64,000 nucleotides of DNA from the NCBI GenBank assembly GCA_029776995.1, contig JAKOTZ010000017.1, forward strand, positions 27,341 through 91,340. The letters are read 5' to 3'. This DNA comes from Candidatus Hydrogenedentota bacterium. GTDB taxonomy: Bacteria; Hydrogenedentota; Hydrogenedentia; Hydrogenedentales; CAITNO01. A program made the position numbers and the translations under genes. Below are positions 1,916-63,014 of the stretch, one piece after another (positions within the stretch are counted from its first letter, which is position 1; every line of letters starts with the position of its first letter). The notes below the pieces were generated by a model. It was not told where the DNA came from, made no database searches, and worked only from the letters and a program-made list of their open reading frames with translations.

Positions 1916-1925
1916 CGGGACCGGC

Positions 1926-3028: not shown

Positions 3029-3102
3029 GCGCGTCTTCCTCCTTTTATACGGCGCATCAGGCAGATCACCCGACGGTCCTGCCGACACCCTGCCTGTGCC
3101 GG

Positions 3103-36752: not shown

Positions 36753-36775
36753 ATGCCTGTCCTTTTCCGGCGGAC

Positions 36776-40920: not shown

Positions 40921-41050
40921 GATTCTCTCTCCGGGGATAAGCCCTGTTATTGGCAACGATCCCATCGTTTCTCTTATTATGGAACAAAAGGAAAACCAAA
41001 CGCGTCCCCGTGTCGGACGCGGGAAACCCTTGTACACCGGGATCGGCAGG

Positions 41051-41847
41051 TGAATCCGGAACGACTGCTCGAATTGCTGCAGACGGTAGCCTCCGGGAAA
41101 TTATCTCCCGCGGACGCGCTGGATCGGTTGCGCGTGCTGCCTTTTGAATGTCTGGACGGCGCCACGGTGGACCATCACCGTGAGCTTCGGAAAGGCCACC
41201 CCGAAGCCATCTTCTGCGAAGGAAAAACGCCGGAACAGGTGGCGCAGATTGCCGAACGCCTGGCGCAGCGTTCCGGGGGGCGGGTGCTTGGAACCCGCTG
41301 CGATACCGCCCGCGCGGAAGCGGCTCGACGCGCGCTGGGCGATGAGGGGTTTACCTATCACGCCCTCGCCCGGTGTTTCACCCTGAGCCTTACCCCTCCG
41401 ACCCCGGCGCCCGGCCCGGTTGCCGTGGTGTGCGCGGGAACCAGCGATCTGCCTGTGGCTGAAGAGGCCGCCGTTACCCTCGAATTCCTGGGACATCCGG
41501 TCGACCGCGTCCAGGATGTGGGCGTGGCCGGCCTGCACCGGCTCCTCGACCGCCTGCCCCAGCTGCGCCATGCCCGGGTGGTCATCGTGTGCGCCGGCAT
41601 GGAGGGCGCCCTGCCCAGTGTGGTGGCAGGGCTGGTGGCTGCCCCGGTTATCGGCGTGCCGGTCAGCGTGGGATATGGCGCGGGAACCGGCGGGTTCGCC
41701 GCGCTGCTGGGCATGCTGAATTCCTGCGCCACAGGCCTGACTGTGGTCAATATCGACAACGGTTTCGGCGCTGCTATGGCCGCTTCAGGCATGCTGCGCA
41801 TGGCGGCGGAATACCAGAACCGGCAGAACGAATCGCCTAAAGGTTAA
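41051..41847 (+). CDS. larB: LarB-type PurE-like carboxylase (nickel-pincer nucleotide cofactor biosynthesis).
   Basis: GTG start at 41051. N-terminal LarB extension (LSPADALDRL...EAIFCEGKTPEQV). PurE-like core (VAVVCAGTSDLP...VIVCAGMEGALPSVVAGL...VIGVPVS). The long ORF-track version (from 40561) is an antisense shadow of ubiB. Confidence 0.75.
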
Positions 41848-41852
41848 TTCCC

Positions 41853-43046: not shown

Positions 43047-43534
43047 ATCCCCCCCGAAAAGCGGTATACCCGGGCAGTTTTGATCCGCCCACCTTGGGAC
43101 ATCTCGACCTGATCTGGCGGGCGGCCCGCATTTTCGACGAAGTCATTGTGGCTGTCGCGAAAAACGAAAGCAAACAATCCCTGTTCACGGTAGACGAACG
43201 CATGGAGATGCTCCGTGAAATCACTGCCGATCTGCCTAACGTGGTGGTGGACCATTTTCAGGGGCTCACGGTGCACTTCGCCCGCAGCCGGGGAGCCTTC
43301 GCGCTCATCCGGGGGCTGCGCGTTATTTCCGATTTCGAATTCGAGCTCTCCATGGCCATTAACAACCAGAAGCTGGCCCCGGACATCGAAACCGTCTGCC
43401 TCATGCCCAGTGATCCCTACCTGTTCCTGAGCTCGCGGCAGGTCAAGGAAATCGTCTCTTTTGGCGGATCGGTCTCCCACTACGTCACGCCGGATATCGA
43501 GCGCCGCCTCCACGAAAAACTGCTGGGAGCCTGA
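43043..43534 (+). CDS. coaD: Phosphopantetheine adenylyltransferase.
   Basis: The ATG overlaps the larC TGA (ATGA). AVYPGSFDPPTLGHLDLI nucleotidyltransferase motif. Confidence 0.9.
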   Translation: MNPPRKAVYPGSFDPPTLGHLDLIWRAARIFDEVIVAVAKNESKQSLFTVDERMEMLREITADLPNVVVDHFQGLTVHFARSRGAFALIRGLRVISDFEFELSMAINNQKLAPDIETVCLMPSDPYLFLSSRQVKEIVSFGGSVSHYVTPDIERRLHEKLLGA

Positions 43535-43545
43535 ATGCGACCCCC

Positions 43546-45507: not shown

Positions 45508-45518
45508 CAAAAACCAAA

Positions 45519-45551
45519 CGCCGCTTCCCAAAGCGGGAAGCGGCGAAAAAA
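45519..45551 (-). terminator. Rho-independent terminator for the minus-strand transketolase gene.
   Basis: cgccgcttccc-aaagc-gggaagcggcg: an 11-bp perfect stem. On the minus strand it is followed by TTTGGTTTTTG. Confidence 0.6.
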
Positions 45552-45579
45552 CAAACCGGTTTGCCTGTTTCCCAGGGAC

Positions 45580-47493: not shown

Positions 47494-47723
47494 ACTGCGG
47501 CCCTCCGCCTTGGTTTATGGAAACAATTCACGGTCGGCATCACATGACGCCGGCGTCCGGCCTGTCTGCCGGACACCGCTATAGTATAGCACTGACAGCG
47601 CCCGGCCTAAAAGCAGCGAATTTCCCCTGCCCGGCTTTTTTCGGTTCTTCAGAGCTGCAGTCCGGCCACGGAATACGGAGGAATGTCATCCTGCCGGCGG
47701 CGGTGTGGCATTATAATATACGG

Positions 47724-47998: not shown

Positions 47999-49924
47999 TT
48001 AAGGGCTTTTCGCCGCGCCCCCTTGAAAAAGGAACAGCGCGCCGGCCGGCGCCCATCCCGGCAGGGCAGGTATTTCTTCGGCCAGTTCTTCCCCGAAGCG
48101 TATCAGCGCCTCGCCCATTTCTTTTTCGCCACTTTCACGTAGCACTGTTCCGCCAAAAACCAGGATATCCGGCCAGTATCCTTCCGTCCGGCTCCCCACG
48201 GTTTCCAGCCATAATCTGGCCTCCTCTCCTCGGCCCATGGACGATGCCACCCGCGCCTGGCCGAAATGGGCCGCGTCCCGCGCGGCCCGCGGCAGCGGCC
48301 ATTCCCACGGCATGCGGCCCCGCACCGCCGGATGGCTGAACCAGCCGGGGGTAACCGCCAGCAGCCGGTCCATGCCGGCCACCCGCAGCGCAACGGTTCC
48401 CGGGGCCGACGCGGGATCCGTTGACTCATCCAGCAGCTGGACCAGCGCCACCCGCCACGCGGCATCTGACCACCCGGACCGTGCCATCGCGGCCGCCCCT
48501 GACTGCTCTGCCTCCCACGCCTTCGCCGCGGACGCCGCTGCAGCCGCCGCCTCCCGGTTCAGCCAGGCGAAACGGAACCCGTTCACCAACAGCACCAGCG
48601 CCGCAGTCCCCACGATCAGATATCCGCCCAGGAAAAAGCACGCGCCAGGGCGCCGCATCGTATTCCCATTGCAGGCCCCCGGTTCCTGTGCTGCCGTACA
48701 CGCCATTCCGCACGCCGCCATCGGAAAAAACAGGATCCACCTTACCGGCAGGATCAGCAGCAGGGACAGCACGACCACCCGCCATCCTCCCATGTCCGCA
48801 TCGGTTACTCCGGTCCGCAAACCTCTGGTTCCGCTCCGCCAATTTCGCCACAGCAGCACAACCAGCCAGACGAAAATCGCAATCCCCGCGGCTCCAGATT
48901 CCGTAACAGTCCCGCCCAGCCAGGGCAGGGACATCGGCAATGACCAGGGTTGATCCGACCGATATATCAGATTTTCCGCTCCCCCGGGTCCCGCTCCCAT
49001 CCATCCCGAATGCGCCAGCCGTGATACTCCCGACCGGAAGACCTTTGCCAAATCCTCCCAACCGCCCAAAATCAGCCCGTGTCCAAACCACAGGATTGCC
49101 GCCATGAGCAGCACTGGCGCCCCTATATACCGGTACGGATTCCCGGCTTCCGGGGAGCGCTTCCGGAACAGCCGCCACGCGCCCAAACCCGTCGGCACGC
49201 CCAGCGCCACCAGGGCGCCAAGGGGCGCCACAGCCGCCGTCAGTAGCGCTAAAACGGTCAGTCGGATCAGTTCCGCCGGGTGAACCGCGGACGCCCTGAT
49301 GAAACGCGCCACATAAAAAGCCAATACACAGCTCAGGGGAAATGCCAGCGGATCCGATCCGTCCGCCGCGGCGGCAAACCCCGCCAGCGGCAGCAGCAGG
49401 CGCGCCACGGCGGCAGCTGCGCAGGAAACCGCAAGTGCCCGAAATACACGCGTGATCGACCGCCGGGGAGATGCCGATGAGGCCAGAAGCAGATATCCCG
49501 CCACACCCACGGCAGCCGATCCCGCCAGGGAGATCAGGGCATCCCGTTCTCTGTCCGGATCATGCAGCCCGGGGGATATCAGGCCGGCCGCCAGCAGTAT
49601 TGCCGTTGGGATACACAAACCGGCAATGCCCGGAAAAAAATAAAGGGTTCTCCGCATGTGCCAGACCGCCTGGGCTGATCCCAGCGCGACACAGACCGCC
49701 CCGAACACCGCTACCAGTGATAAACCGGGGGGCACCATTTCCAGCAGTGGAACAGTCCCGGGCGCCAGGCGGACGCTGATTTCCCGCAGAAAACGCGTCG
49801 GTACAACCGCAAGATCCCTCCACGGCGCCAGCGCCAGCGTCAGGGTAAAAAAGAACACCCCTGCATCCGCAATGGCACAGGGGCGGAAAAGCCGGGCCGG
49901 CACTTTACCCAGCCGGCGGATCAT
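47999..49924 (-). CDS. Polytopic membrane protein, O-antigen-ligase/Wzy-like, with a C-terminal soluble TPR-like domain.
   Basis: About 12 transmembrane segments with a large periplasmic loop. Ala-rich C-terminal repeats. Confidence 0.5.
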   Translation of the reverse strand: MIRRLGKVPARLFRPCAIADAGVFFFTLTLALAPWRDLAVVPTRFLREISVRLAPGTVPLLEMVPPGLSLVAVFGAVCVALGSAQAVWHMRRTLYFFPGIAGLCIPTAILLAAGLISPGLHDPDRERDALISLAGSAAVGVAGYLLLASSASPRRSITRVFRALAVSCAAAAVARLLLPLAGFAAAADGSDPLAFPLSCVLAFYVARFIRASAVHPAELIRLTVLALLTAAVAPLGALVALGVPTGLGAWRLFRKRSPEAGNPYRYIGAPVLLMAAILWFGHGLILGGWEDLAKVFRSGVSRLAHSGWMGAGPGGAENLIYRSDQPWSLPMSLPWLGGTVTESGAAGIAIFVWLVVLLWRNWRSGTRGLRTGVTDADMGGWRVVVLSLLLILPVRWILFFPMAACGMACTAAQEPGACNGNTMRRPGACFFLGGYLIVGTAALVLLVNGFRFAWLNREAAAAAASAAKAWEAEQSGAAAMARSGWSDAAWRVALVQLLDESTDPASAPGTVALRVAGMDRLLAVTPGWFSHPAVRGRMPWEWPLPRAARDAAHFGQARVASSMGRGEEARLWLETVGSRTEGYWPDILVFGGTVLRESGEKEMGEALIRFGEELAEEIPALPGWAPAGALFLFQGGAAKSP

Positions 49925-49927
49925 GGA

Positions 49928-50452
49928 TCAGGACCCCGATACTTCCCGGGATTCCTCCACCGGCACCGCGGCGGGAGCTGCCTGCGAGGCGTCCGATCCG
50001 CCGCTCAGTTTGGCCATGATGGCATCTGCCAGTTTCTGGGTGGCCCGCTCATCTTTCAGTTTGCGGTCGTGCCACCCCGGATCCGTAAGCAGGGTTACCC
50101 CATAAACCTGGCGTACCGCTTCAATGTGAATATTGGTCTCTTTTTCGCCTGCCGGAGTCAGGTTGATGGTGTATTTGATCCGGTGCGGCTGCACGAACAG
50201 CAGACGGTACGTATCTCCATAAGCGACGAACAGCCCCCGTTTGTCCCGGGTATAAATTTCCAGGTTCTGTTCCCGCAGGGCCGCTTTAACCGCCTGCCAG
50301 GCTTCCTCAAAAGGCACATCCGCCCGCAGGTCCCGTGTTACCGCGAAACCGGTCGTATCACGGGCGCTGCGCGCGCAGGCTGGCATCAGCGCCACGGCCG
50401 CCAGCATTACCGACAATACCGCAAACCACGTAAACGCGCGTGTCCGGGCCAT
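49928..50452 (-). CDS. Lipoprotein of unknown function.
   Basis: GGAGGG Shine-Dalgarno. Signal peptide with a lipobox-like LMPACA motif. Confidence 0.55.
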   Translation of the reverse strand: MARTRAFTWFAVLSVMLAAVALMPACARSARDTTGFAVTRDLRADVPFEEAWQAVKAALREQNLEIYTRDKRGLFVAYGDTYRLLFVQPHRIKYTINLTPAGEKETNIHIEAVRQVYGVTLLTDPGWHDRKLKDERATQKLADAIMAKLSGGSDASQAAPAAVPVEESREVSGS

Positions 50453-50684
50453 AGTCTTGCCCTCCGTTTCACCGCATTTTATCACATCCCCTTAACGGGT
50501 ACCAATAAACGGAAATGCCGGTTCCGCCGATTCTAACAATAAATGCAACCCCTGCTGAGTTTTGGTGTGAATAAGGTGGCGGCCAAGACGCGGGAGGAAT
50601 TGAAAAGTAGAAGATAGCAAATTTAGAATTACCATTCAGGCCAGCTGGCATTACGACTTCATTTTCTTACAGAAAGGATATAGA

Positions 50685-53600
50685 GTGAGTAACGACTTGT
50701 CCTCTTTGTGTGGGCAGCGGATTTTGCTCGCCGGCCACTACGCTGAACCTGTGGTTTTGGAGGAAGCGCGGTTGATTGGTTCCAATGATATGCCAGTCTA
50801 TGAATGCCGTGTTCGTCTTTCCAATGGATCCTTAGAGGAGGTTGTTATTTCCGCGGAAGAGGCCGAGGCTATCTTCAGCAAAAAACATGGCTCTGCCGAA
50901 AAGGATTTGGTGGACGCCGAAAAGCTTCGGCTTCTGATCGAATCGGCTCGAATCCGTTTAGCCTATGCGTATGACCAACAGTTTGCGGTGAGTCTTTCTG
51001 GCATCCGGACGTTGCCGCATCAGATTGAAGCGGTGTACCAGGCAATGCTTCCTCAGCCCAGGTTGCGTTTCTTGCTGGCAGATGATCCTGGAGCCGGAAA
51101 GACAATCATGGCCGGGCTCCTGATAAAGGAGCTAAAGTTGCGTGAGGCGATTGATCGCATCCTCATCCTATGTCCCGCGCCGCTCACCGTGCAGTGGCAG
51201 GACGAGATGCTTCGCTGGTTCAGCGAGCCTTTTGACATTATCTTTTCCGCTGTCGACCAACAGCAATTGACCAATCCATGGCAGAGGTCTTCACAGATCA
51301 TTGCGTCCATTGACTACGCCAAGCAGGAAGACGTGCGCGAGCGTGTCTGGCAACAGCGGTGGGATCTCGTCATCATCGACGAGGCCCACAAGTGTTCGGC
51401 CAGGACCGCCACAGGTGGACAGAATCGAGAATCCAAAGTCGCGACAACGAAGCGCTATGACCTGGCCTTGCGTCTCACATCTCAGGCAGACCACGTTCTC
51501 CTCCTGACGGCCACACCCCACCATGGGGACGAAGACAAATTTGCTCATTTCCTGCGACTCATTGATCCGGATCTTTTTCCGGAACCGCACCGGCTGGCAA
51601 AACAGGCCGGTGAAATTCGGCAGAATGTCTTTCGACTGGGAAAAGATTCACCATGGTGCTTGCGGCGTCTCAAGGAAGATCTTCGGGATGCGAACGGCAA
51701 GCGGCTTTTTCCTGATCGTCATGCCAGGACTGTCGCGTTTACGCTGAATAGCGACGAATACGCTCTCTACAAAAGCGTAACCGCATACATCAATGAGTTT
51801 ATCCCGCAACAGACCGGGCAAAAGCGTTCTTCTGCGGCGTTGACCCGAACTGTCCTGCAACGAAGGCTGGTGAGCTCCACCTGCGCGATACACGAGTCCC
51901 TCAAACGGCGTCTGAAAAAACAGGAAGGCCTTCTGGAAGAACTTGAGGGGCTCACGCCGGACCAGCGCGCCAAACGATTGGCCGCTTTGCAGGGTCGACG
52001 GTCTGATGCCGAACAGGATGAAGACGATCTTGACGATGCGGAACGGGATCAATTGGTTGATGAGTATACGACTGCGCAGGAACTTGAACAGTTGCGTGCG
52101 GAGATCTCCGCCCTCAGGGAACTTGTCGAGCAGGCGCGAAGGGTTCGTGAAAACGCGAATGATTCCAAACTGGCCGCATTGAAGAAATGCCTCAATGATG
52201 CCCAGTTTCAGGACCTGAAGGATGGTCGGGGAAAGCTTCTGATCTTTACGGAACACCGGGATACCCTTGGCTACGTGCGCGGGCATCTGGAACGGTGGGG
52301 GTTCAGCACCTGCGAAATCCATGGCGGCATGAACCCCCATGAACGCAAACGCACTCAGGAGGTCTTTCGGACCAGTGCGCAGGTGTGCGTCGCCACGGAA
52401 GCTGCCGGCGAAGGGATCAACCTCCAGTTCTGCCACCTGATGATCAATTATGATATGCCCTGGAACCCGACCCGGCTGGAGCAGCGATTAGGGCGTATTC
52501 ATCGCATTGGCCAGGACCGGGATGTCTATGTTTTCAACTTCGTGGCCACGGATTCCGAGGACGGACAGCCCATTGTGGAAGGCCGGATTCTTCATCGACT
52601 TCTGGAAAAACTTGACCAGATGAACGAGGCCCTTGAAGGTCGCGTTTTCGATGTGATCGGCGAAGTACTGTCCCTGAACGACGTAAACCTCCCGGATATG
52701 CTCCGTGATGCAGCTTATGACCCCAGGCGGCTCGACGAATACCTCGACCAGATCGACCGTATCGACCCAGTAAAGCTTAAAGAATACGAAAAAGCCACGG
52801 GTATTGCGCTCGCGCGCAGCCATGTGGATTTTTCCGCGTTTCAGCAACGGAACCTCGAGGTTGAGGAAAAGCGGCTGATGCCTCGATATGTCGAGGCGCA
52901 ATTCATTGCGGCCGCCCGTGAAGTTGGCCTTCGGGTCGAGCCGAGAGCCGACGGGCTGTGGCGCATCGAACATGTCATTGCGGATCTTCGTTCGGAAAGG
53001 CTGCGCTCTGTTCAAAAAATCGGAAAACCGGAATCCGCCTATCGTAAGATCACTTTTCACAAACAGCACCTCGAGCAGGACGCCCACCTGGATGCCGTGC
53101 TGGTAGGTCCTGGCCATCCGCTCTATGCGGCGGTGGATGAGAAGCTCAATGAGCGTCTGGAAACGTTGGTCGGAGGTATTGGTTTCTTCATCGATCCCTT
53201 GTGCAGAGAACCTTATCGTATCCATTTCCTTGAGATTTCAATTCTCGGCACGGACTCGAAAGGAAACAATGTGCCGCTTTATGGTGAACTCCTTGCTGTG
53301 CGGGAAGAAATTGGGAAGTGCGAAGTCATCCCAAGCGACATCCTCCTCAACCTGGCGGCACATCCGCGCCCACCGAGAGAAATCGATACGAAAACCCAGG
53401 CTGCGAGCGTGTCACAAGCCATCGATTTTTTAAAAAGCACCTATCAGCTCGAGTGCCGCGCCCGTTGTCAGCGCGAGCGACAGCATTTCGCGCAGATTTG
53501 CCGGGAGTATCTGGAAAAGTCGTTCAAAGCCCGGATCGACCACGCCCAGCGAAGGGCGATGGAGCTTGCCGCCGAAGCAGTTTCCAAACCGGAGTTCAAG

Positions 53601-54212
53601 TTGGCTGCGGACGAGGCCAAAAAAGACGTAGATGAACTTGAGCGCGCACGCCAGGAAAGGCTCACCGGTTTAAAACAGCTTGAAACTGCCAGAACCGGGC
53701 CAATTAAACATGTGGGGACGGCCTTTGTACTCCCTCCAGATGCCGACATGCCAGCCCAGCTCGCCGATCTGGCCGAGGATCTCGATCCGAATATCCGCCG
53801 GCAGGTCGAGATCGCCGCGGAAGACAGGGTCGTTGAAGCGCTGGTCGCCGAGGGCTTTCCCCCTGACCGCATTGAGCGGGTCGGCCATCTGCATTTGGGA
53901 TTCGACATCCGGGCCCAAAGGATCGCCGATGAAAATACCGGCGAAATTTTTGTGAAAAGAATCGAGGTCAAAGGACGCAGGCGGGGACAGCCGGTAAGGC
54001 TTACCACCAACGAGTGGTACAAGGCCCAGCAACTGGCCGAAACCTACTGGCTGTACGTGGTGTGGGACCCCCTGGGAGATACTCCGGAAATCGTGCGCAT
54101 ACATAACCCTGTTGCCAAACTCGACCATGCCAAACGGGAGATCGTGGCGGCGAGATTCTATGAAATCTCTGCCGAGGCGGTGCAGAATGCTGGATTGCGG
54201 GAGATGAGGTGA
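50685..54212 (+). CDS. SNF2/Swi2-family helicase with a C-terminal DUF3883-like (restriction-endonuclease-fold-like) domain. It is the helicase component of a helicase-methylase-ATPase defence module.
   Basis: GTG start after AAAGGA. Helicase motifs I LADDPGAGKT, II VIIDEAHK, III LLLTATP, and VI QRLGRIHRIGQ. A coiled-coil middle region. The C-terminal ~100 aa (VKRIEVKGRRRGQPVRLTTNEWYKAQQLAETYWLYVVWD) resemble DUF3883. Confidence 0.85.
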   Translation: MSNDLSSLCGQRILLAGHYAEPVVLEEARLIGSNDMPVYECRVRLSNGSLEEVVISAEEAEAIFSKKHGSAEKDLVDAEKLRLLIESARIRLAYAYDQQFAVSLSGIRTLPHQIEAVYQAMLPQPRLRFLLADDPGAGKTIMAGLLIKELKLREAIDRILILCPAPLTVQWQDEMLRWFSEPFDIIFSAVDQQQLTNPWQRSSQIIASIDYAKQEDVRERVWQQRWDLVIIDEAHKCSARTATGGQNRESKVATTKRYDLALRLTSQADHVLLLTATPHHGDEDKFAHFLRLIDPDLFPEPHRLAKQAGEIRQNVFRLGKDSPWCLRRLKEDLRDANGKRLFPDRHARTVAFTLNSDEYALYKSVTAYINEFIPQQTGQKRSSAALTRTVLQRRLVSSTCAIHESLKRRLKKQEGLLEELEGLTPDQRAKRLAALQGRRSDAEQDEDDLDDAERDQLVDEYTTAQELEQLRAEISALRELVEQARRVRENANDSKLAALKKCLNDAQFQDLKDGRGKLLIFTEHRDTLGYVRGHLERWGFSTCEIHGGMNPHERKRTQEVFRTSAQVCVATEAAGEGINLQFCHLMINYDMPWNPTRLEQRLGRIHRIGQDRDVYVFNFVATDSEDGQPIVEGRILHRLLEKLDQMNEALEGRVFDVIGEVLSLNDVNLPDMLRDAAYDPRRLDEYLDQIDRIDPVKLKEYEKATGIALARSHVDFSAFQQRNLEVEEKRLMPRYVEAQFIAAAREVGLRVEPRADGLWRIEHVIADLRSERLRSVQKIGKPESAYRKITFHKQHLEQDAHLDAVLVGPGHPLYAAVDEKLNERLETLVGGIGFFIDPLCREPYRIHFLEISILGTDSKGNNVPLYGELLAVREEIGKCEVIPSDILLNLAAHPRPPREIDTKTQAASVSQAIDFLKSTYQLECRARCQRERQHFAQICREYLEKSFKARIDHAQRRAMELAAEAVSKPEFKLAADEAKKDVDELERARQERLTGLKQLETARTGPIKHVGTAFVLPPDADMPAQLADLAEDLDPNIRRQVEIAAEDRVVEALVAEGFPPDRIERVGHLHLGFDIRAQRIADENTGEIFVKRIEVKGRRRGQPVRLTTNEWYKAQQLAETYWLYVVWDPLGDTPEIVRIHNPVAKLDHAKREIVAARFYEISAEAVQNAGLREMR

Positions 54213-54215
54213 ACA

Positions 54216-54806
54216 GTGGAGCGAAGTGAACTTACCGAACTGCACTACATTACGCCTATTGCCAATTTGCCATCCATTCTCCGGCATGGCATTCTGTCTC
54301 ATAACCGCGCCAAACGTATTGAGCATCAATCTGTGGCAATGAATGAGATTCAAGACCGACGGGCTAAAGTGGTCGTTCCCGGCGGGAAAAAACTCCATGA
54401 TTATGTAAATTTGTATGTCTGCGCCAGAAACCCGATGATGTACAAATGTCAGGCGCAGTTCAAGGAAATTTGCGTTCTGAAAATCAGCACTGATGTAGTG
54501 GATCTACCTGGGGTAGTGATTACCGACGGTAATGCTTCCGGAGACTATGTGCGGTTTTCGGCAGCGCCGAAGGGGTTGGCGATTGTGGATCGGGATTGGA
54601 CCTTTGCGGATGATTGGCGAGACCCCGATCAGATTCAGTATTATCATAAAAAGGCTGCCAAGTGTGCCGAAGTGTTAGTGCCGGATCAGGTAAATGCGGA
54701 TTACATCATGGGCGCCTACGTCGTGTGTCAGGAATCCCAAGAGACGATCAAGGATTTGGTCCAGCATCTTTTTGTGGTAATAAATGGCCATCTTTTTTTT
54801 AGGTAG
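54216..54806 (+). CDS. darT: DarT-family (DUF4433) DNA ADP-ribosyltransferase toxin.
   Basis: GTG start 4 nt after the helicase stop. N-terminal LHYITPIANLPSILRHGILSHNR and C-terminal AEVLVPDQV signatures of DarT. GC content is about 48%. Confidence 0.85.
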   Translation: MERSELTELHYITPIANLPSILRHGILSHNRAKRIEHQSVAMNEIQDRRAKVVVPGGKKLHDYVNLYVCARNPMMYKCQAQFKEICVLKISTDVVDLPGVVITDGNASGDYVRFSAAPKGLAIVDRDWTFADDWRDPDQIQYYHKKAAKCAEVLVPDQVNADYIMGAYVVCQESQETIKDLVQHLFVVINGHLFFR

Positions 54807-54816
54807 GAAGAAAGGT

Positions 54817-55935
54817 ATGGTTAAGGTTATTATGGGCAATATATTTGAATCCCGGGCGCAAACCCTGATCAACACAGTGAACTGCGTTGGAGTTATGGGG
54901 AAAGGTGTGGCCCTGGAATTTAAAAAGCGCTTTCCCGAAATGTTTGAAGATTACGTCCGGCGGTGCGAGGCCAAGCAGGTCCATCTCGGTCGTCCCTACC
55001 TTTTCAAGCAGATGTTTCCGCCCTGGATTCTCAACTTTCCGACTAAAGACCATTGGCGGTCTGTTGCGCGCCTTCAGGATATCGAGGAGGGATTGCGTTA
55101 CCTCCAGCAACACTATACGGAGTGGGGCATCACCTCTCTGGCTGTACCACCCCTGGGGTGTGGTCATGGCCAACTCGAATGGCGTGTGGTCGGACCGACT
55201 TTGTACAGGCTCCTGATGGATTTCAATATTCCAGTTGAGCTTTATGCGCCGTTCGGCACGCCCCATGAGGAACTCCAGCTTTCATTTCTGGACAAGTCAC
55301 AAGCAGCGGAATCTCAGAAAGCGGCTCCATATAACATTGATCCCGCATGGGTAGCCGTTGTGGAAGTGCTCAAACGCATCGAGGAGGAGCCGTTTCATAG
55401 GCCTGTCGGAAGAACGACATTTCAGAAGATCGTCTATTTTGTAAACGAATGCGGTATTCCAACCGGCTTGACATACCAGAAGGGAAGCTACGGTCCTTAC
55501 GCACCTGCCCTAAAGGAGCTACTCACCGCCCTGGTGAACAACGGCCTTGTGCACGAGAAGAAACTTGGGCGCATGTTTGCCATCCAGGTCGGTCACACCT
55601 TTCCCGACGCCCAAAAAGCTTATGAACAACAGATTAAGGAGTGGGATCCGATCATCAACAAAGTTGCCGATCTTTTTATGCGGGTGAATACCCAGCAGGC
55701 CGAGGTCGCCGCAACGGTGTATTTTGCCGCCCAAGAGGCAAAGACCAGATCGGAAGAGATGCCCACGGAGAAAGATGTCCTCGATGCCGTCATGAAGTGG
55801 AAGCAAAAGCGCAGACCGCCTCTGAACGAAAAAAATGTCGCTCTGACAGTGCGCAACCTGAACATGTTGAGCTGGCTCGGGGTCAAGGTAAGCGACGAGT
55901 TACCCATCACCGAAGAGGATGTCCTGCATGTCTGA
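54817..55935 (+). CDS. darG: DarG-family macrodomain antitoxin (ADP-ribosyl-DNA glycohydrolase).
   Basis: GAAGAAAGG Shine-Dalgarno. N-terminal TARG1/DarG-type macrodomain (NTVNCVGVMGKGVALEFKKRFP...PPLGCGHG). A C-terminal ~200-aa domain. Confidence 0.85.
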   Translation: MVKVIMGNIFESRAQTLINTVNCVGVMGKGVALEFKKRFPEMFEDYVRRCEAKQVHLGRPYLFKQMFPPWILNFPTKDHWRSVARLQDIEEGLRYLQQHYTEWGITSLAVPPLGCGHGQLEWRVVGPTLYRLLMDFNIPVELYAPFGTPHEELQLSFLDKSQAAESQKAAPYNIDPAWVAVVEVLKRIEEEPFHRPVGRTTFQKIVYFVNECGIPTGLTYQKGSYGPYAPALKELLTALVNNGLVHEKKLGRMFAIQVGHTFPDAQKAYEQQIKEWDPIINKVADLFMRVNTQQAEVAATVYFAAQEAKTRSEEMPTEKDVLDAVMKWKQKRRPPLNEKNVALTVRNLNMLSWLGVKVSDELPITEEDVLHV

Positions 55936-58900
55936 TGACCGCAGGCTTATAGAAGATTTCCTGCCCATCCAGGCCATCAGCGCGGAGGCATCGCGGGAGA
56001 AGTCTATCCGAAAAGGGAACATCTCGACGCTTCACCGCTGGTGGGCGCGGCGGCCGCTGGTGGCCTGCCGCGCCGCCGTGTATGGCGCGCTGGTCCCGGC
56101 GTCGCGGTTCGTGTCGGAGAATGGCCCGGACAACAAAAAGCAAAGCCTGGGCAGGGCCAATGCGGCCAGGTTCATCGAGCGGCTCTGCAAGTATCCGGGC
56201 AATCCGACCGTCATCAAGGAAGCCCAAAGGCACATTCTCGAAGCTCACGCTGAAAGGTTGACTGAAGCGGCCGGCAGGAAGGTCACCGCCGAGGACATCG
56301 AAGCAGGCCGCGCCCCCCGCCCCAGGGTGCTCGACATGTTCGCCGGCGGAGGGTCCATTCCGCTGGAAGCGCTGCGGCTGGGGTGCGAGGCCTACGCCCT
56401 CGACCTTAACCCCGTGGCCCACATCATTGAACTGTGCACGTTGGTGTATCCCCAAAAATACGGCAATCCGGATCCCGGCGCCCGCGGGATGGCCGGCCCC
56501 CAGAATGCAAAGGGCGAAACCACCTGGGGCGGCCTGGCCGACGAGGTCCGCTACTGGGGCGAATGGGTGCTCAGGAAGGTCAAGGCCGAGATCGGCGACC
56601 TTTACCCGCTCATTCCCGATCCCGAATACAAGGGGGAAAGACCTCCGGTTCAAGCCGAAATGTGGCAGTCCTCTGAAAGGGAAACGGTACCGCCGGGGTA
56701 CCTTGTGCCTGTTGCCTATCTCTGGACGCGGACTGTCCGCTGCAAGAACCCGACGTGCGGAGCCACGGTGCCGCTTGTGCGGCAGACCTGGCTCTGCAAA
56801 AAGAAGGGCCGCTATGTGGCCCTTCGGATGGTTGCGCCCAACGGGGAAAAGTCGGCGCGTTTCGAAGTGGCGGAAAGCAGCGTCGAACAGGGGCTGGGCT
56901 TCGATCCGGCGGGCTTTTCCAAGGGCGGCAACGCCACCTGCCCGTTTTGCGGGACCGTGGCGGACAGCGATTATGTGAAGGCCGAAGGATGCGCCAAACG
57001 CATGGGTCAGCAGCTGATGGCTGTGGTCTGCATCCGGCCGGGCAAAAAAGGAAAGGTCTATCTATCCGCCGAAGAGGCTACCAGCCTGCTCAAAAGCACA
57101 GGTAAGATGCCTGTGCCGCCGGAAGAGGAGATAAAACAGCGCATCGAAGCACTCTGCCAGAGAACAGGACTGACCGTGCCGGCGGAGATGTTGCCCCGGA
57201 GATCAAACAACCCGGATGATTTTCGGGGCACGCTGGGTATGGGCGTGCAGCCCTATGGTATTACCACCTTTTGCGATCTCTTCACGCCCCGCCAGCTACT
57301 CTGCCTGCTAACCTTCACTGCAGCGGTAAGAGAAGCAGGAGTCCAGATGTACCGTTTGTACGGTAACCGATTGAATAGCCAAGACAACAGCTATTCCTCA
57401 GTAAGCGCTTTAAATGATCAGGTCAAAGCCGTGCTGACTTACTTGGGTACTGCGGTAAATCGGATGGCAGACTTCAATTCTTCATTATGCGTTCACAATT
57501 ACTTTGGTAGTAGCAGAATTGCGCACACATTCAGGCGACATGCACTCCAGATGGTATGGGACTTTGTGGAGGCAAATCCTTTCAACTATGGTAGTGGAGG
57601 TTGGGGGATTAACAATATCGTGGAGGTTCTGGAATCGCCTGATACGATCACCTATACCGCAGCAATGGTTACCCGCGGCTCCGCCGCAGCCCTTCCGTGG
57701 TCTGATGGTTTATTCGATGCTATCATTACGGACCCTCCCTACTACGACAACGTACCCTATGCCGAAATTTCTAACTTCTTTTACATTTGGCTTAAGCGCT
57801 CAGTGGGTCACCTTTATCCCGAACATTTCGCCAACGACGGCCCTCCCAAGAAACAAGAGGCTATTGCCGATGCGGTTCGTCATGGTGGCAACAAAAAAAA
57901 GGCACGGCAAGTGTACGAGCAAATGATGGCTCAGTCCTTCGCTGAGGCGAACCGGGTGCTGAAGCCAGGCGGCCAAATGGTGGTGGTCTATGCGCATAAA
58001 ACCACCTTGGGATGGTCAACCCTTGTGGGTGCACTTCAGCAGGCGGGCTTTGTTGTAATGGAAGCATGGCCTCTCGATACGGAAAAACCCGGTCGCCTTC
58101 GGGCTCAGAATGCAGCCGCCCTTGCCTCCAGCATCTTTTTAGTTGCACGTAAGCGTGCGGGGACGCAGACCGGCTCCTATGAAGAAGAAGTACGCCCTGC
58201 ACTGGATCGGATTGTCCGCGAACGGGTGGACTCCTTCTGGAAGATGGGCATCACGGGTGCCGATCTTGTCATTGCTGCCGTGGGCGCGGGCCTTCGGGCC
58301 TATACCCGATTTGCGCGGGTGGAGTACGCCAACGGCGAAGAAGTCCCGGCGGAGAAATTTCTGGCCGAGGTGGAAGGCGTTGTACTGGAGACGCTTCTGG
58401 AGAAGATCTTCGGGGTAACCGGAAGCGGCGTGGCAGCGGTGGACGGCCCGAGCCGGTTTTATCTGCTCTGGCGCCACACCTACGGCGCGGATGAAATGGA
58501 TGCCGGCGAAGCCATCGTCTTTACCTACGGACAGAACGTGGAGCTGGACGGGCCAAACGGCCTATCTTCCGGAAGCTGCGCCATGGTTGAGAAAAAGAAA
58601 GGAAAATACCGGCTGCGCGATTTTTCCGAACGGGGCAGTGACGCCAGGCTGGGCATGCCAGGACATACCGGCAGGCCGGCCCCGCTGATGGATATCCTGC
58701 ACCGCATCCTGTGGCTCATGGAAAACGAGCCCCGCAAACTCAACGACTTTCTCGACGAGGTACGGCCGGATCGGGAACGGCTGCGCCTGGTAGCCCAGGT
58801 TCTGGCCGGAACAGCGCTGGAGGGCGCGGAGGCTGGAAGCCAGCCTCACCCCAATATGATTACCACTCCCGCGGAAGGCGCGGCCCTGAAGAAACTTGTC

Positions 58901-58960
58901 GCCAACTGGGGGACGCTGATCGACCAGCGGCTGGCCGCCAGAGAAGGGCGCCTGTTTTAA
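55919..58960 (+). CDS. DUF1156-family DNA methyltransferase with a Zn-ribbon (COG1743-like).
   Basis: N-terminal DUF1156 block (IEDFLPIQAISAEASREKSIRKGNISTLHRWWARRPL). Motif I-like DMFAGGGSIPLEA. A Zn-ribbon (CKNPTCG...CPFCG). Motif IV ITDPPYYDNVPY. It overlaps the darG stop by 17 nt. Confidence 0.85.
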   Translation: MSCMSDDRRLIEDFLPIQAISAEASREKSIRKGNISTLHRWWARRPLVACRAAVYGALVPASRFVSENGPDNKKQSLGRANAARFIERLCKYPGNPTVIKEAQRHILEAHAERLTEAAGRKVTAEDIEAGRAPRPRVLDMFAGGGSIPLEALRLGCEAYALDLNPVAHIIELCTLVYPQKYGNPDPGARGMAGPQNAKGETTWGGLADEVRYWGEWVLRKVKAEIGDLYPLIPDPEYKGERPPVQAEMWQSSERETVPPGYLVPVAYLWTRTVRCKNPTCGATVPLVRQTWLCKKKGRYVALRMVAPNGEKSARFEVAESSVEQGLGFDPAGFSKGGNATCPFCGTVADSDYVKAEGCAKRMGQQLMAVVCIRPGKKGKVYLSAEEATSLLKSTGKMPVPPEEEIKQRIEALCQRTGLTVPAEMLPRRSNNPDDFRGTLGMGVQPYGITTFCDLFTPRQLLCLLTFTAAVREAGVQMYRLYGNRLNSQDNSYSSVSALNDQVKAVLTYLGTAVNRMADFNSSLCVHNYFGSSRIAHTFRRHALQMVWDFVEANPFNYGSGGWGINNIVEVLESPDTITYTAAMVTRGSAAALPWSDGLFDAIITDPPYYDNVPYAEISNFFYIWLKRSVGHLYPEHFANDGPPKKQEAIADAVRHGGNKKKARQVYEQMMAQSFAEANRVLKPGGQMVVVYAHKTTLGWSTLVGALQQAGFVVMEAWPLDTEKPGRLRAQNAAALASSIFLVARKRAGTQTGSYEEEVRPALDRIVRERVDSFWKMGITGADLVIAAVGAGLRAYTRFARVEYANGEEVPAEKFLAEVEGVVLETLLEKIFGVTGSGVAAVDGPSRFYLLWRHTYGADEMDAGEAIVFTYGQNVELDGPNGLSSGSCAMVEKKKGKYRLRDFSERGSDARLGMPGHTGRPAPLMDILHRILWLMENEPRKLNDFLDEVRPDRERLRLVAQVLAGTALEGAEAGSQPHPNMITTPAEGAALKKLVANWGTLIDQRLAAREGRLF

Positions 58961-58985
58961 CGTATTGAGATTCGGAGGGCCTAAC

Positions 58986-61889
58986 GTGAGCACATATACG
59001 CTTCGTCCCTGGACCGACCTGGTTAAGCTCCATCCGGACGTGGAATCCGGCAGCCTGACCGAGGCGGTCTTCGCCATTGATCTCGGGGCCATCGCCGCCA
59101 ATGATCCCAACGTGCCCGTAGTCAACCGGGACCCGGAAGCCTTCTTTCGGGCAACCTACCTTACGGCCGATCTGCGAAAACTGCTGGAAGAAGTGCTGGC
59201 ATCCCTCTCCGGCAAATCCGGTTACAACCGGGTATTGAAACTCCGGGTGCCCTTCGGAGGCGGGAAATCACACACCCTGGCGGCGCTGTTCCATGCCGCG
59301 CGAAAGCGCGAGGCGCTGGAATGCATTCCCGAGGCGGAAACATTCGCCCGGCCCGGCAATGTGGCCGTAGCCGTCTTTGACGGCGAGAAATTCGATGCCC
59401 GTAACGGCAAGACGCTGGATGACGGCCACGCGATCCAGACCATGTGGGGCTGGATCGCCTGGCAGATCGATCCCGAAAAAGCTTTCCCCCTGGTGGCCGA
59501 CCACGACAGGGACCGCGTGGCTCCCGGCGGCGACGTAATCCGTGAACTGCTCACCAAAGGCGCTGGCGGCAGGCCGGTTCTAATTCTGCTCGACGAAGTG
59601 CTTAAGTATATGGAGCGGGCCGCCGCGGTTGGCGTCCTGGATTCCACCCTCCAGCGGCAGGCCAAAGATTTTTTCCAGAACCTTACCGTCGAGGTTGCCG
59701 GAAGCGAGAAAGCGGCGCTCGTCTATTCCCTCACCTGGAGCGCCAGGGAGGCCCTGGGCAATGTCGGGCTGCTTGCCGAGATCGATAAGCTTGCTTCCCG
59801 GGTGGACCAGCTCAGGGAACCGGTTTCAGGGGATGAAATTCTTCCGATCCTTCAGCGGCGCCTGTTGGAACGCAACCCGGATCCGTCTTATACCGCAGCG
59901 GTCGCCCACGCCTATCAGGAGGTGATTACCGGCATGCAGCGCGCCCATGCTGAAACGCTATCCGAACGTCTCCAGGCCGATGAGGAAGGATGTAAGTTTC
60001 GGGATCGGGTTCGCACTGCATATCCGTTCCATCCGGCGCTCATCGACATCATGCGGGAACGCTGGACAGCGGTGGACGCCTTCCAGCGGACGCGCGGCGC
60101 CCTGCGTTTTCTTGCCTCCTGTATGCATTCCATCAGGAAGAACGGCGGCGCCAAAGCGCTTCTTGGTCCCGGAGATGTGCCACTGCATGATGTCGACGTT
60201 CGGGTGAAGATGCTCAAAGAACTGGGGGTACAGCATGATTATGATCCGGTTATTACGGCAGACATCTGCGGCCCGAACGCCCGCGCAAAACGGATTGATG
60301 ACCGTATGGCGCGTGAAAACCCTGAGCTTGCCAGCGTGAAACCAGCCACCCGCATTGCCACGGCTATCCTTTTATATTCGTTTGGCGGGTTAAGGCGTGA
60401 AAGCCGGGACAGCGACGAAACACTCCCGCCCGGGGTAACAGAGAAAGATCTGCTGGAAGCCTGCATAGGACCTGACCTCGATAACATAACGGCTACAGCT
60501 GTGTTGGCAGAACTTCGCAATACCTGCCTCTATCTGCACTACGATGGCGTCCGGTACTGCTTCAAGAAAGACCCGAATGTCACCAAGCTGATTGAGGACG
60601 CGGAGCAGACCATTGCCCGTGAGGACGTTCAGGCGAGCGGGTACGGTTTGGTACGCGACAAAATCAAGGAAATGCTGTACGCCCGCCTGGCCGGCACGCA
60701 CACAGCTATCGTGTGGCCGGCGAAAAGCCAGGACATCCCGGACGAGGATCCGCATTTCCTGGTCGCCTACCTGCCCCTGGAGTTTGCCGCTGAAGAAAAA
60801 TCGGAACAGGAACGGCAAGCCAAGGCGTACCTGACGAAATACGGCGACCGTCCCAGGCGATTCCGTAACGGGTTGGGGCTTGCTATACCGGACAAGAAAC
60901 AAATCGAAGGGCTTCGGCGTGCCGTCCGGTATCTCCTGTCTATCGATCGCGTGGAAGCAAAGAAACAGCAGCACCGGCTCACAAAAGACCAGATTGACCA
61001 GCTTCGGGAACGGAAAAACACCGAACAGGCAGCCGCCGAAGCATGCTTCCGGGACCTTTACACCGCTGTGTGGCTGCCCCGGGTCCAGGATGGCGAGATT
61101 GAACTGGAGAAAGTGGAACGGGGGGGGCGGCCGCTTCAGGCGACGGGCGTTCACCAGCGCATCATGGAGCTACTGACCAGTGTGGGGACACCGCGGATTC
61201 ACGGCTTGGTTACGCCGCAGAAAATCGTCGAGCGGGTGGGGCTTGGTAAATGCCTGCGCAAGGGTGAACCGCCGCTCATGGGCATCAGGGTATCCGATGT
61301 GCTGGAATCCTTTTTTCGGGATATTGCGCCGCCCCGGTTGGAATCCGCATCTGTCCTGCGCAAGGGGATCGCTCGCGGCGTATCGGAAAGAGTCTTCGCC
61401 TACGTTAGCGGGGAAAACCCGGTTCTTGGACCTGACAGGAAATACCAGATAAATCTCGACAAAGTGGTATTTGGCAAGGCGATTCCCGAAGACGAAATTG
61501 ATTTTGACTCTGGCTTTCTCATGCTGCCCGAAGCCATTCCGGAAGTATCGCCCAATCCGCCACAAGGCGGTTCCCCCAGTGGTTCAGGTGAGGACCTCCC
61601 GAAAAGGGTTAATGACAACGGCAATGGAAACGGACCGGGAACTGGTTCAGGGTCAGGTACAGGCATGGCCGGTCAAAAGAAGCAGATCGCCCTGACATTT
61701 GAGGCAACCAAAGCGCAGGTATATAAATCATTCAACGCTATTGCAAACCTAGCCGAGAAATCCGATGGGGCCAGGATTCGTATCCGAGTTGAGGGTACGT
61801 CATCTTCCGGCTTCGATCCGTCCTGGCTGCGAAATGCCGTGTATGAACCCTTGGACGAGGCCGATATCAAATGGACCGATGAGGCTTGA
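58986..61889 (+). CDS. DUF499-family (BrxC-like) P-loop ATPase.
   Basis: GGAGGG Shine-Dalgarno then GTG at 58986. Walker A PFGGGKSHT. Walker B ILLDEV. A Gly/Asn-rich linker (NDNGNGNGPGTGSGSGTG) precedes an ~80-aa C-terminal domain. Confidence 0.8.
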   Translation: MSTYTLRPWTDLVKLHPDVESGSLTEAVFAIDLGAIAANDPNVPVVNRDPEAFFRATYLTADLRKLLEEVLASLSGKSGYNRVLKLRVPFGGGKSHTLAALFHAARKREALECIPEAETFARPGNVAVAVFDGEKFDARNGKTLDDGHAIQTMWGWIAWQIDPEKAFPLVADHDRDRVAPGGDVIRELLTKGAGGRPVLILLDEVLKYMERAAAVGVLDSTLQRQAKDFFQNLTVEVAGSEKAALVYSLTWSAREALGNVGLLAEIDKLASRVDQLREPVSGDEILPILQRRLLERNPDPSYTAAVAHAYQEVITGMQRAHAETLSERLQADEEGCKFRDRVRTAYPFHPALIDIMRERWTAVDAFQRTRGALRFLASCMHSIRKNGGAKALLGPGDVPLHDVDVRVKMLKELGVQHDYDPVITADICGPNARAKRIDDRMARENPELASVKPATRIATAILLYSFGGLRRESRDSDETLPPGVTEKDLLEACIGPDLDNITATAVLAELRNTCLYLHYDGVRYCFKKDPNVTKLIEDAEQTIAREDVQASGYGLVRDKIKEMLYARLAGTHTAIVWPAKSQDIPDEDPHFLVAYLPLEFAAEEKSEQERQAKAYLTKYGDRPRRFRNGLGLAIPDKKQIEGLRRAVRYLLSIDRVEAKKQQHRLTKDQIDQLRERKNTEQAAAEACFRDLYTAVWLPRVQDGEIELEKVERGGRPLQATGVHQRIMELLTSVGTPRIHGLVTPQKIVERVGLGKCLRKGEPPLMGIRVSDVLESFFRDIAPPRLESASVLRKGIARGVSERVFAYVSGENPVLGPDRKYQINLDKVVFGKAIPEDEIDFDSGFLMLPEAIPEVSPNPPQGGSPSGSGEDLPKRVNDNGNGNGPGTGSGSGTGMAGQKKQIALTFEATKAQVYKSFNAIANLAEKSDGARIRIRVEGTSSSGFDPSWLRNAVYEPLDEADIKWTDEA

Positions 61890-62105
61890 AAAACCTAGCG
61901 GCTGTCGCTTTGAAGAATATACCCAAACGCCGGAGTCAGCCATTAACTGAATTAAAATTATATTAGTATAATCGTAATACTAAATAAAAAAGAAATCTGT
62001 GTTTGTGTAAATGGCCCATTAGTGCAGTTAAATAAATCTAACACCACCAACCAGCATCCAGGGAGGCTGCATACCCTTGCGGGGGCGTGGTACACTGAAT
62101 GGCCT

Positions 62106-63014
62106 ATGGACGTGTGTGTGTGCGTGGAAAACCTCCGCAAGCGGTACGGGAAGACCGAGGCGCTGCGGGGGATCAGTTTCGAGGTCCGGCGGCATGAGAT
62201 CCTGGGCCTGCTGGGACCGAACGGCGCGGGGAAAAGCACCACCCTCGGAATCCTGTGCGGGCTGGTGCGCCCCACCGCCGGGCGGGTAACCGTCTTCGGC
62301 ATGGACCTGGCACGGCACCGCCTGGCCGCGCTGGAAAAAATCGGGGCGCTGCTGGAACGGCCGGCGTTTCCGCCGCGCCTGACGGTGCGGCGGCTGGCGC
62401 GGCTGCACGCCCGCCTGAAAGGGCTGCCCTATGAAGCGGCGGAACAGGCGCTGCACCGGGTGGGGCTCTCGGACTGGGCGTCGGTGGCCGCGGGGCGGCT
62501 GTCGCTGGGGCTGCGCCAGCGGCTGGGCCTGGCGCTGGCCATCCTGGGCGAGCCGGAACTGCTGATCCTGGATGAGCCCACCCTGGGCATGGACGTGGAA
62601 TCCGCCGGCCAGGCGCTGGATTTCCTGCGGCAGCTCGCCCGGGAAGGCGGCGCCACGATCCTGTTTTCCAGCCACCGGATGGGCGAGGTGGAACGGCTGT
62701 GCGACCGGGTGGCCATCATCCGGGAAGGTGAAATCGTGTCCGTGGCGGACACGGCGGGCCTGCTGGCCTGGAACCTGGGGGAACTGGAAATTTTTGTGGA
62801 CCGGCCAGAGGAGGCGCTGTCCCTGATCCGGTCGCTCCCGGAAACGGCGGAAGCGGAACTGGAGCCCTCCGGCATGGTCCGCGTCCGGCTGAAGGAATCC
62901 GGCGCGTCCCACGCGGTCACGCGCCGGCTGGTGGAAGCGGGCTTTCAGGTCCGGGCGGTCATTCCCGCGCGCCGGACGCTGGAACTCCATTTCAGGGAGG
63001 TGACGGGATCATGA
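62106..63014 (+). CDS. ABC transporter ATP-binding protein.
   Basis: Walker A GPNGAGKST, signature LSLGLRQRL, Walker B LILDEPT. GC content is about 72%. Confidence 0.85.
   Translation: MDVCVCVENLRKRYGKTEALRGISFEVRRHEILGLLGPNGAGKSTTLGILCGLVRPTAGRVTVFGMDLARHRLAALEKIGALLERPAFPPRLTVRRLARLHARLKGLPYEAAEQALHRVGLSDWASVAAGRLSLGLRQRLGLALAILGEPELLILDEPTLGMDVESAGQALDFLRQLAREGGATILFSSHRMGEVERLCDRVAIIREGEIVSVADTAGLLAWNLGELEIFVDRPEEALSLIRSLPETAEAELEPSGMVRVRLKESGASHAVTRRLVEAGFQVRAVIPARRTLELHFREVTGS

Follow-up and report, generated by a model that had tools for sequence, protein, structure and literature searches.

We analyzed a 64,000-nucleotide (nt) stretch of DNA from Candidatus Hydrogenedentota bacterium (contig JAKOTZ010000017.1 of assembly GCA_029776995.1), hereafter referred to as the window, and focused on a five-gene unit at positions 50685–61889 in which a darTG toxin-antitoxin pair is nested within an Hma (helicase-methylase-ATPase) defense system. 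The unit consists of five tightly packed open reading frames (ORFs) on the (+) strand in the order hmaA-darT-darG-hmaB-hmaC (Table 1), none of which is truncated and all of which retain their catalytic motifs. The five identities proposed by an initial annotation of this DNA were borne out by these motifs and by profile searches with Pfam, PADLOC, and NCBIfam. The identical arrangement, together with its neighborhood, was recovered in four independent assemblies (Logan SRR2043628 and SRR18360461, JGI 3300010327, and ENA ERZ746980) and is therefore no artefact of assembly.

Gene starts were refined using ribosome-binding sites in the sequence, gene calls on identical contigs, and exact protein look-up. 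Spacings of 4–25 nt had been noted for this strand initially, and the refined starts uphold the close packing, with gaps of 3 nt between hmaA and darT, 10 nt between darT and darG (the toxin gene lying directly upstream of the antitoxin gene), and 25 nt between hmaB and hmaC, as well as an 8-nt overlap between darG and hmaB (ATGTCTGA) that places the hmaB start inside the end of darG. The darG ATG at 54817 is preceded by a ribosome-binding site (GGAAGAAAGG), and the protein of this length is on record as P0001 (100% match by exact look-up); a longer darG ORF starting from the ATG at 54784 (383 amino acids [aa]) had no match in the exact look-up and was dropped in favor of 54817. The hmaC start is backed by a ribosome-binding site (GGAGGG) and by gene calls on identical contigs. 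Two genes are thereby embedded between hmaA and hmaB and zero between hmaB and hmaC.

Table 1. Genes and flanking features of the five-gene unit (positions are those of the window; GC, guanine-plus-cytosine fraction).
Feature	Position	Strand	Details
AT-rich 5′ spacer	50453–50684		GC 0.444; likely contains the operon promoter
Promoter-like site	50600–50629	+	TTGAAA, 18-nt spacer, TAGAAT; 10/12 consensus matches; 55 nt before the hmaA GTG
hmaA	50685–54212	+	GTG start, 1175 aa
darT	54216–54806	+	GTG start, 196 aa
darG	54817–55935	+	ATG start, 372 aa
hmaB	55928–58960	+	ATG start, 1010 aa
hmaC	58986–61889	+	GTG start, 967 aa
AT-rich 3′ spacer	61890–62021		GC 0.333; palindrome and promoter-like site before the ABC-transporter gene

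Analysis of the three Hma proteins revealed that HmaA contains the Pfam domains SNF2-rel_dom (E-value of 9e-20), Helicase_C (1e-24), and NOV_C (formerly DUF3883; 3e-14) and matches the PADLOC HmaA model (8.2e-189) over nearly its full length (residues 43–1127). Its helicase motifs are GAGKT at residue 136 and DEAH at residue 232, and the PD-(D/E)xK nuclease residues of its C-terminal NOV_C domain are intact (D1074, E1094-x-K1096, and E1110). Specifically, D1074/E1094/K1096/E1110 correspond to D1084/E1104/K1106/E1121 of Halomonas HmaA, which are essential for defense and nicking (PMC11232893). HmaB matches DUF1156 in Pfam (4.7e-25) and the PADLOC HmaB model (2.7e-138), and it carries methyltransferase motif I (DMFAGGG at 136) and motif IV (DPPY at 602), separated by a large, Zn-ribbon-like insert with four invariant cysteines (C272, C277, C338, and C341). 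HmaC matches DUF499 in Pfam (1.2e-25) and is an ORC/Cdc6-like AAA+ ATPase with a P-loop (GGGKS at 91) and a Walker B motif (LLDEV at 201); it matches the PADLOC HmaC model at 1.8e-109 versus 3e-7 for the BrxC model. The relationship of DUF499 to BrxC suggested earlier is correct. No N-terminal HEPN domain was detected in HmaC with Pfam, which found DUF499 alone. Several close relatives of HmaB (P0174, P0175, P0176, P0236, P0238, and P0239; 64–70% identical) bear N-terminal fusions of a DprA/SLOG-like, GIY-YIG, or Y1-transposase type, which indicates that effector or sensor modules can join the methylase itself.

The proteins of the embedded pair are likewise assigned to known families. DarT matches PF14487 (DUF4433) at 6.8e-42 (143.9 bits compared with a 22.5-bit cut-off) and the PADLOC DarT model at 2.4e-44, and it aligns to the DarT structures 7OMU and 7OMV. 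The catalytic E152 lies in CAEVLVP and corresponds in the alignment to the catalytic residue mutated in 7OMU; its counterpart in Thermus aquaticus DarT is E160 (PMC5179494). The score of DarT against the NCBIfam toxin_DarT model (123.4 bits) is below the 150-bit equivalog cut-off; DarT belongs to a divergent subfamily, its family assignment resting on Pfam and PADLOC. DarG, in turn, matches Macro in Pfam (6e-16), the PADLOC DarG model (1.8e-95), and the NCBIfam antitoxin_DarG model (303.6 bits compared with a cut-off of 250; residues 14–359 of the long ORF). Its N-terminal macrodomain, which contains N19/N22 and the catalytic K77 in FPTKDHW (K80 in T. aquaticus DarG; PMC5179494), matches the structures 5M31 and 5M3I (DarG of T. 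aquaticus and M. tuberculosis), and a DarT-binding domain forms the C-terminal part. A macrodomain antitoxin defines DarTG2 and a NADAR antitoxin DarTG1 (PMC11543638); since the antitoxin has a macrodomain and gave no NADAR match in Pfam, we placed the pair in the DarTG2 class.

Two relatives of DarG deserve separate mention. P0010 (521 aa, 81% identical to the window DarG) contains both DarT and Macro domains and is either a DarT-DarG fusion resembling the crystallized Thermosipho protein (7OMU) or an artefact caused by gene calling or a frameshift. P0241, which belongs to the 90%-identity cluster of the window DarG, is labeled Limnochordia (Bacillota) by NCBI, and the flanks in the window are Hydrogenedentota; the label reflects either very recent horizontal transfer or noise in the binning of metagenome-assembled genomes (MAGs).

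The five genes most likely form one operon, whose promoter would lie in the AT-rich spacer preceding hmaA. The site listed in Table 1 is the strongest (+) strand promoter-like site preceding any gene of the unit, and a weaker internal site (9/12) lies inside hmaB at 57492–57519 on the same strand; such sites are consensus matches only, and their regional count is no greater than in shuffled sequences. A consensus scan found no (+) strand promoter-like sites directly before darT, darG, or hmaC and no terminator-like sites at the gene junctions.

The name Hma originates from PADLOC (Payne et al. 2021; PMC8565338), and the initial annotation applied it correctly. The accompanying statement that Hma is mechanistically uncharacterized is outdated. 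HmaA alone protects E. coli from T4 by means of its SNF2 domain and NOV_C nickase (Liu et al. 2024; PMC11232893), and a 2026 in silico study dissected Hma as a "Type-1 DUF499-centred BREX-related (BR) system" each component of which has a homologue in type 3 BREX (PMC12839542). The window locus has the three core proteins of this system, encoded in that system's order on one strand and with near full-length PADLOC matches, namely an SNF2 helicase with an active-type NOV_C nuclease, an N6-type methylase of the DUF1156 family in which a target-recognition insert is nested, and a DUF499 AAA+ ATPase. It differs in that its HmaC is without the N-terminal HEPN domain found in about half of the Type-1 BR systems and in that the host phylum, Hydrogenedentota, is not among the studied hosts.

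In comparison with type 3 BREX, each Hma protein has a homologue (BrxHI/BrxHII, 5.7e-105; PglXI, 3e-18; and BrxC at the value given above; PMC12839542), but PglZ, BrxA, BrxB, and BrxF are all absent among the five genes and four flanking ORFs, and the Hma effector is a helicase-fused nuclease in place of PglZ. The earlier view that the locus is not BREX thus holds, with no PglZ, BrxA, or BrxB match in these proteins. As for DISARM, HmaA scored 378 bits against DrmD (cut-off, 610), and no DrmA, DrmB (DUF1998), DrmC, or PLD protein was found. Type-2 BR systems were rejected on NCBIfam scores of 189.9 for DUF1156_antiphage (cut-off, 1000), 182.1 for DUF499_antiphage (1200), and 162.6 for the PLD-helicase (1100), and, unlike these systems, the locus has no PLD helicase or DUF3780. 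BREX, DISARM, and Type-2 BR are therefore excluded, because components are missing and scores fall far under the curated cut-offs, the matches to DrmD, DUF1156_antiphage, and DUF499_antiphage being weak to moderate.

Nesting of foreign genes in Hma is well documented. Insertions occur in 66.5% of hma systems, where the region has been termed a "defence gene insertion hotspot" (PMC11232893), and embedded genes were reported in 62.7% of 1,485 Hma systems in a study that used "guilt-by-embedding" in Hma to discover new systems (Payne et al., bioRxiv 10.1101/2024.01.29.577857). The window locus resembles these cases in that a complete known defense system lies between hma genes and shares their orientation, and in that relatives have other cassettes or none at this junction; the cassettes found there include members of the HEC and PDC families, which the preprint defined (10.1101/2024.01.29.577857). 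It departs from them in the identity of the cassette, the published text examples being Septu, PARIS, Ppl, GmrSD/BrxU-like, and HEC-01 to HEC-09.

DarTG has also been found inside restriction-modification (R-M) operons, where Jankevicius et al. (2016) raised the ideas of crosstalk between methylation and ADP-ribosylation and of a stabilizer role (PMC5179494), and for an island of enteropathogenic E. coli (EPEC) that carries DarTG2 between hsdS and hsdR, tests have been carried out and the regulator has been solved (PMC12255303). As in DarTG2-bearing Type I R-M operons, the window has a DarT and a macrodomain DarG, toxin first, in the same orientation within a methylation-based restriction operon with predicted co-transcription, and its DarG clade also occurs with hsdR directly downstream. 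In contrast to those operons, the host system is Hma rather than HsdMSR, and the insertion lies between the helicase-nuclease and the methylase instead of between hsdS and hsdR. The RptR-like regulator and M48 peptidase gene of the EPEC RptR-RMS-DarTG-M48 island are absent among the five genes of the window. The pairing of darTG with Hma, which had been put forward as undescribed, is unnamed in the literature texts and supplements searched, the Payne preprint included, although figures were not covered and it may be depicted there; what is not supported is the interpretation of the locus as an undescribed composite system, since Hma, nesting in Hma, and DarTG in R-M operons are all published. 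We conclude that the locus is a clear but ordinary case of a defense cassette in the Hma hotspot and, equally, of DarTG2 nested in a restriction-like operon.

The initial annotation had called for a comparison of the module with and without darTG in other genomes. We retrieved 80 metagenome loci with an HmaB profile (HmaB 54–99% identical to that of the window) and mapped the five proteins and all junction ORFs; 70 loci were classifiable and 10 were not. darTG occupied the hmaA-hmaB slot in 9 of the 70 (L095, L099, L116, L140, L159, L163, L169, and L171, with L170 partial), L116 being the window's own sequence. The slot was empty in 19 loci, 16 of which overlap hmaA and hmaB by 4 nt (ATGA or GTGA), and a gap of at least 150 nt, mostly occupied by other genes, was present in 42. 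Where the contig covers both ends, the darTG-bearing gap always measured 1.69–1.74 kb. Inserts were found at the hmaB-hmaC junction in many Hma relatives as well. Among the clusters of inserted ORFs, DUF4062+HATPase_c_4 was represented in 9 loci, DarG in 8 and DarT in 7 (window included), and MNT nucleotidyltransferases in 5; further cassettes comprised HEC-01A ABC ATPases, PDC-M19B, PDC-S02, Ppl-like, SIR2/LmuA-like, and OLD/AriA-like ATPases, and HD-domain proteins. This variety of exchanged cassettes is the published hotspot picture.

Further analysis of these relatives revealed that the darTG-positive loci fall at no fewer than seven separate positions of an HmaB tree, with nearest neighbors that are empty or have another cassette. 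This neighbor-joining tree, built from identity distances and lacking support values, is suited to distinguishing a scattered from a clustered distribution and not to resolving fine topology. The identities of Hma and DarTG proteins are only loosely coupled across loci. For example, L099 is 83% identical to the window in HmaA, 63% in DarG, and 59% in DarT, and the corresponding values for L159 are 81%, 74%, and 75%. HmaA retains its nuclease residues (D, ExK, and E) in every darTG-positive locus.

The closest relative with an empty slot, L093 (HmaA 86% and HmaC 90% identical), retains a trace of the missing pair at 3940–4047. Its whole 100-nt hmaA-hmaB spacer aligns to the final ~95 nt of darG with a score of 37, compared with a maximum of 13 for shuffled sequences. 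The encoded remnant ends in LPINEEEILHV and a stop codon that overlaps the hmaB ATG, the window DarG ending in LPITEEDVLHV and a stop codon. This darG 3′ scar indicates that darT and most of darG were deleted and that hmaABC was kept intact.

Viewed from the side of the cassette, DarG has thousands of close relatives (64–86% identical) across phyla. A DarG profile detected at least 596 loci in species-representative genomes, of which we examined the best 80 (42–66% identical, archaea included). Hma genes flanked darTG on the same strand in about 5 of these 80, with hmaA upstream in L022, L032, and L073 and hmaB downstream in L031 and L016; in one further locus (L066), an Hma gene adjoins darTG on the other strand. 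hsdR lay immediately downstream of darTG in 5 of the 80 loci, among them L088 with hsdS upstream as well, and a ResIII-type helicase lay nearby in 4 of the 80. The other flanks proved diverse (342 clusters from 376 ORFs). Given how few loci are flanked by Hma and how diverse the flanks are, this DarTG clade lives mostly outside Hma, yet habitually inside restriction-like operons.

Loss of the other partner is represented by L019 (Verrucomicrobia bacterium LP2A; 8968–11125), in which darTG directly follows a ~120-aa fragment that matches HmaA residues 39–231 by BLAST; neither hmaB nor hmaC lies within 10 kb of darTG. To judge from these remains, Hma seems to have decayed in L019, leaving the toxin-antitoxin pair as the sole survivor. 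A rearranged variant of the operon was observed in L010 (5139–8994), where hmaA, darT, and darG (DarG 84% identical) are followed by a shortened hmaB (761 aa) with a fusion to HDOD/HD domains and then by a resolvase gene, hmaC being missing. The complete unit is mobile, as all five genes recur in unchanged order in a different neighborhood in a Syntrophales MAG, whose proteins are 84% (DarG), 86% (HmaA), 82% (HmaC), 71% (HmaB), and 69% (DarT) identical to those of the window. One Syntrophales assembly has an HTH_17 gene upstream of the unit.

Considering the gene content, the relatives, and the published hotspot, we think it likely that this Hma system, with a complete DarTG2 cassette in the hotspot junction between hmaA and hmaB, amounts to two autonomous defense layers that probably share one transcript. 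At this junction, defense cassettes are gained, swapped, and lost. As predicted from the protein families, the first layer would comprise adenine methylation of host DNA by HmaB, recognition in which the ORC/Cdc6-like ATPase HmaC would share, and translocation of HmaA on unmodified invader DNA, which HmaA would nick or cut with its own PD-(D/E)xK domain. In the second layer, DarG would restrain DarT in uninfected cells by binding it and by stripping ADP-ribose from thymidine, and infection would free DarT to ADP-ribosylate thymidines of single-stranded phage DNA (ssDNA), thereby blocking replication. This second layer may act as an abortive-infection-type backup. The five-gene unit moves horizontally as a whole, in keeping with its position in a lower-GC patch of the Candidatus Hydrogenedentota genome.

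Several points weigh against this interpretation. Co-transcription of the five genes is predicted from homology, as are methylation, restriction, and ADP-ribosylation, and we know of no demonstration of HmaB methylase activity. Overexpression of HmaB in Halomonas left T4 susceptibility unchanged (PMC11232893). Considering its score below the equivalog cut-off, DarT could differ in base specificity from the characterized DarT2 enzymes. Lastly, only one other cassette at most is as frequent as darTG in this Hma clade, and darTG always sits at the hmaA-hmaB junction, which could reflect a selected partnership and not a neutral hotspot.

A different role for the pair is that of an addiction module, in which darTG would be a selfish stabilizer that anchors the Hma island and contributes little to defense, loss of the locus freeing DarT to kill the cell. 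Jankevicius et al. (2016; PMC5179494) suggested such a role for the DarTG of Type I R-M operons, and it accords with the survival of darTG after the surrounding Hma genes in L019 and with the lower GC of darTG (0.506 versus 0.55–0.59 for the hma genes), which fits a separately traveling element. However, cloned DarTG1 and DarTG2 give direct phage defense, according to work cited in passages of PMC12255303 and PMC11543638, the clean loss of darTG from L093 with hmaABC left in place means that stabilization is not absolute, and the other occupants of the slot are defense systems and not toxin-antitoxin modules alone. We therefore consider this explanation unlikely as an account of the locus, while a stabilizer role for darTG is compatible with two autonomous layers.

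The initial annotation suggested a composite system, either a two-layer defense or one with DarT as the effector. In an integrated system, DarT would be an (additional) Hma effector that is licensed by HmaC sensing or by ssDNA made by HmaA, with DarG as the safety catch. The tight coupling on both sides (the 3-nt gap and the 8-nt overlap) is consistent with integration, as are the recurrence of darTG in this exact slot in at least seven Hma lineages and in several phyla and the match between the ssDNA requirement of DarT (PMC5179494) and the nickase and translocase activities of HmaA (PMC11232893). Nonetheless, about 87% of close relatives have either nothing or an unrelated cassette in the slot, Hma genes are missing from the vicinity of about 90% of the 80 DarG-clade loci sampled, and each partner outlasts the other, hmaABC after the darTG deletion in L093 and darTG after Hma decay in L019. 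In addition, DarG is a standard full-length antitoxin with no extra domain. An integrated system with DarT as the Hma effector is thus disfavored and, in our estimation, quite improbable. The version in which DarT replaces the Hma effector is rejected, because the HmaA nuclease catalytic residues are retained in all darTG-positive loci, and the persistence of hmaABC in L093 speaks against a DarT effector as well.

There is a slim chance that the repeated capture of darTG at the hmaA-hmaB junction, translationally coupled on both sides, marks a functional partnership and not a neutral hotspot. For instance, HmaA acting as a translocase and nickase on unmethylated invader DNA could expose ssDNA thymidines for DarT or, alternatively, phage inhibition of Hma could be the trigger that releases DarT. 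If true, such a partnership would be a wired two-step defense linking epigenetic discrimination and DNA ADP-ribosylation. Finally, a decaying, non-functional relic or a MAG assembly chimera, for which one could cite the MAG origin of the sequence and the single Limnochordia-labeled member of the DarG cluster, is scarcely credible given the four independent assemblies of the identical arrangement, the five full-length ORFs with intact catalytic motifs, and the occurrence of the same layout in other taxa.

The locus is a clean, intact nesting of two published defense systems in an uncultured phylum, Hydrogenedentota, and no new kind of system. Its novelty is modest and consists of the recurrence of DarTG2 in the hmaA-hmaB slot within one Hma clade, which adds DarTG2 to the list of cassettes for this hotspot, and of direct sequence evidence of darTG loss in the form of the L093 deletion scar. 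Together with the apparent decay of Hma in L019, the scar indicates that either partner can be lost independently. The compact, 11-kb predicted operon provides material on whether embedded systems act additively or synergistically, a question that neither the "guilt-by-embedding" work nor, in the case of Type I R-M, the 2016 DarTG paper settled.

The composition of the region sets the unit apart from its surroundings. GC is 0.564 in the coding sequence of the island and, therefore, lower than on both sides of it in the window (0.611 upstream and 0.704 downstream). The initial annotation had described the island as bounded by AT-rich spacers, which is confirmed by the value for the 5′ spacer (Table 1) and by a GC of 0.412 for 61890–62105. 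The transketolase encoded in the flank matches proteins of Candidatus Hydrogenedentota MAGs with complete identity. No empty island site was found in related Hydrogenedentota genomes by way of the flanking ABC-transporter and transketolase proteins. The downstream ABC protein occurred only on contigs bearing the island, and the transketolase neighborhood in relatives led to a breakpoint at ~47.5 kb and not to a clean empty site; the island boundaries are consequently set by composition only. This breakpoint was apparent from a related Hydrogenedentota contig (L175), which aligns to the window in four blocks at 72–84% nucleotide identity and on which window positions 1–4136 and 35669–47522 are adjacent in opposite relative orientation. 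Such an arrangement implies a rearrangement breakpoint at ~47.5 kb, a position that precedes the island by 3 kb.

Two (−) strand ORFs between the breakpoint and the island (47999–50485) had no Pfam or PADLOC match, nor did the upstream ORFs in general, leaving the earlier "lipoprotein" label of the upstream neighbor unconfirmed. The only tRNA called by ARAGORN, an 82-nt tRNA-Gly(GCC) at 56031–56112, lies inside hmaB and has no Rfam match at the gathering threshold; lacking Rfam support, it was treated as a false positive and not as an integration site.

Downstream of the island, an ABC transporter ATPase gene is followed by an ABC-2 permease gene, in agreement with the GC-rich ABC transporter described there earlier. 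The ATPase (62022–63014) has moderate PADLOC matches to mad3 (1e-27) and AriA (6e-10) within the generic ABC/AAA_21 fold and, with the adjoining permease gene, looks like part of an ordinary exporter and not like a defense gene. Its gene is preceded by a promoter-like site at 61943–61972 (TTAACT, 18-nt spacer, TATAAT). This site overlaps a perfect 7-nt inverted repeat at 61963–61983 (TTAGTAT-AATCGTA-ATACTAA) in the spacer 3′ of hmaC, and, given this overlap, the repeat may be an operator.

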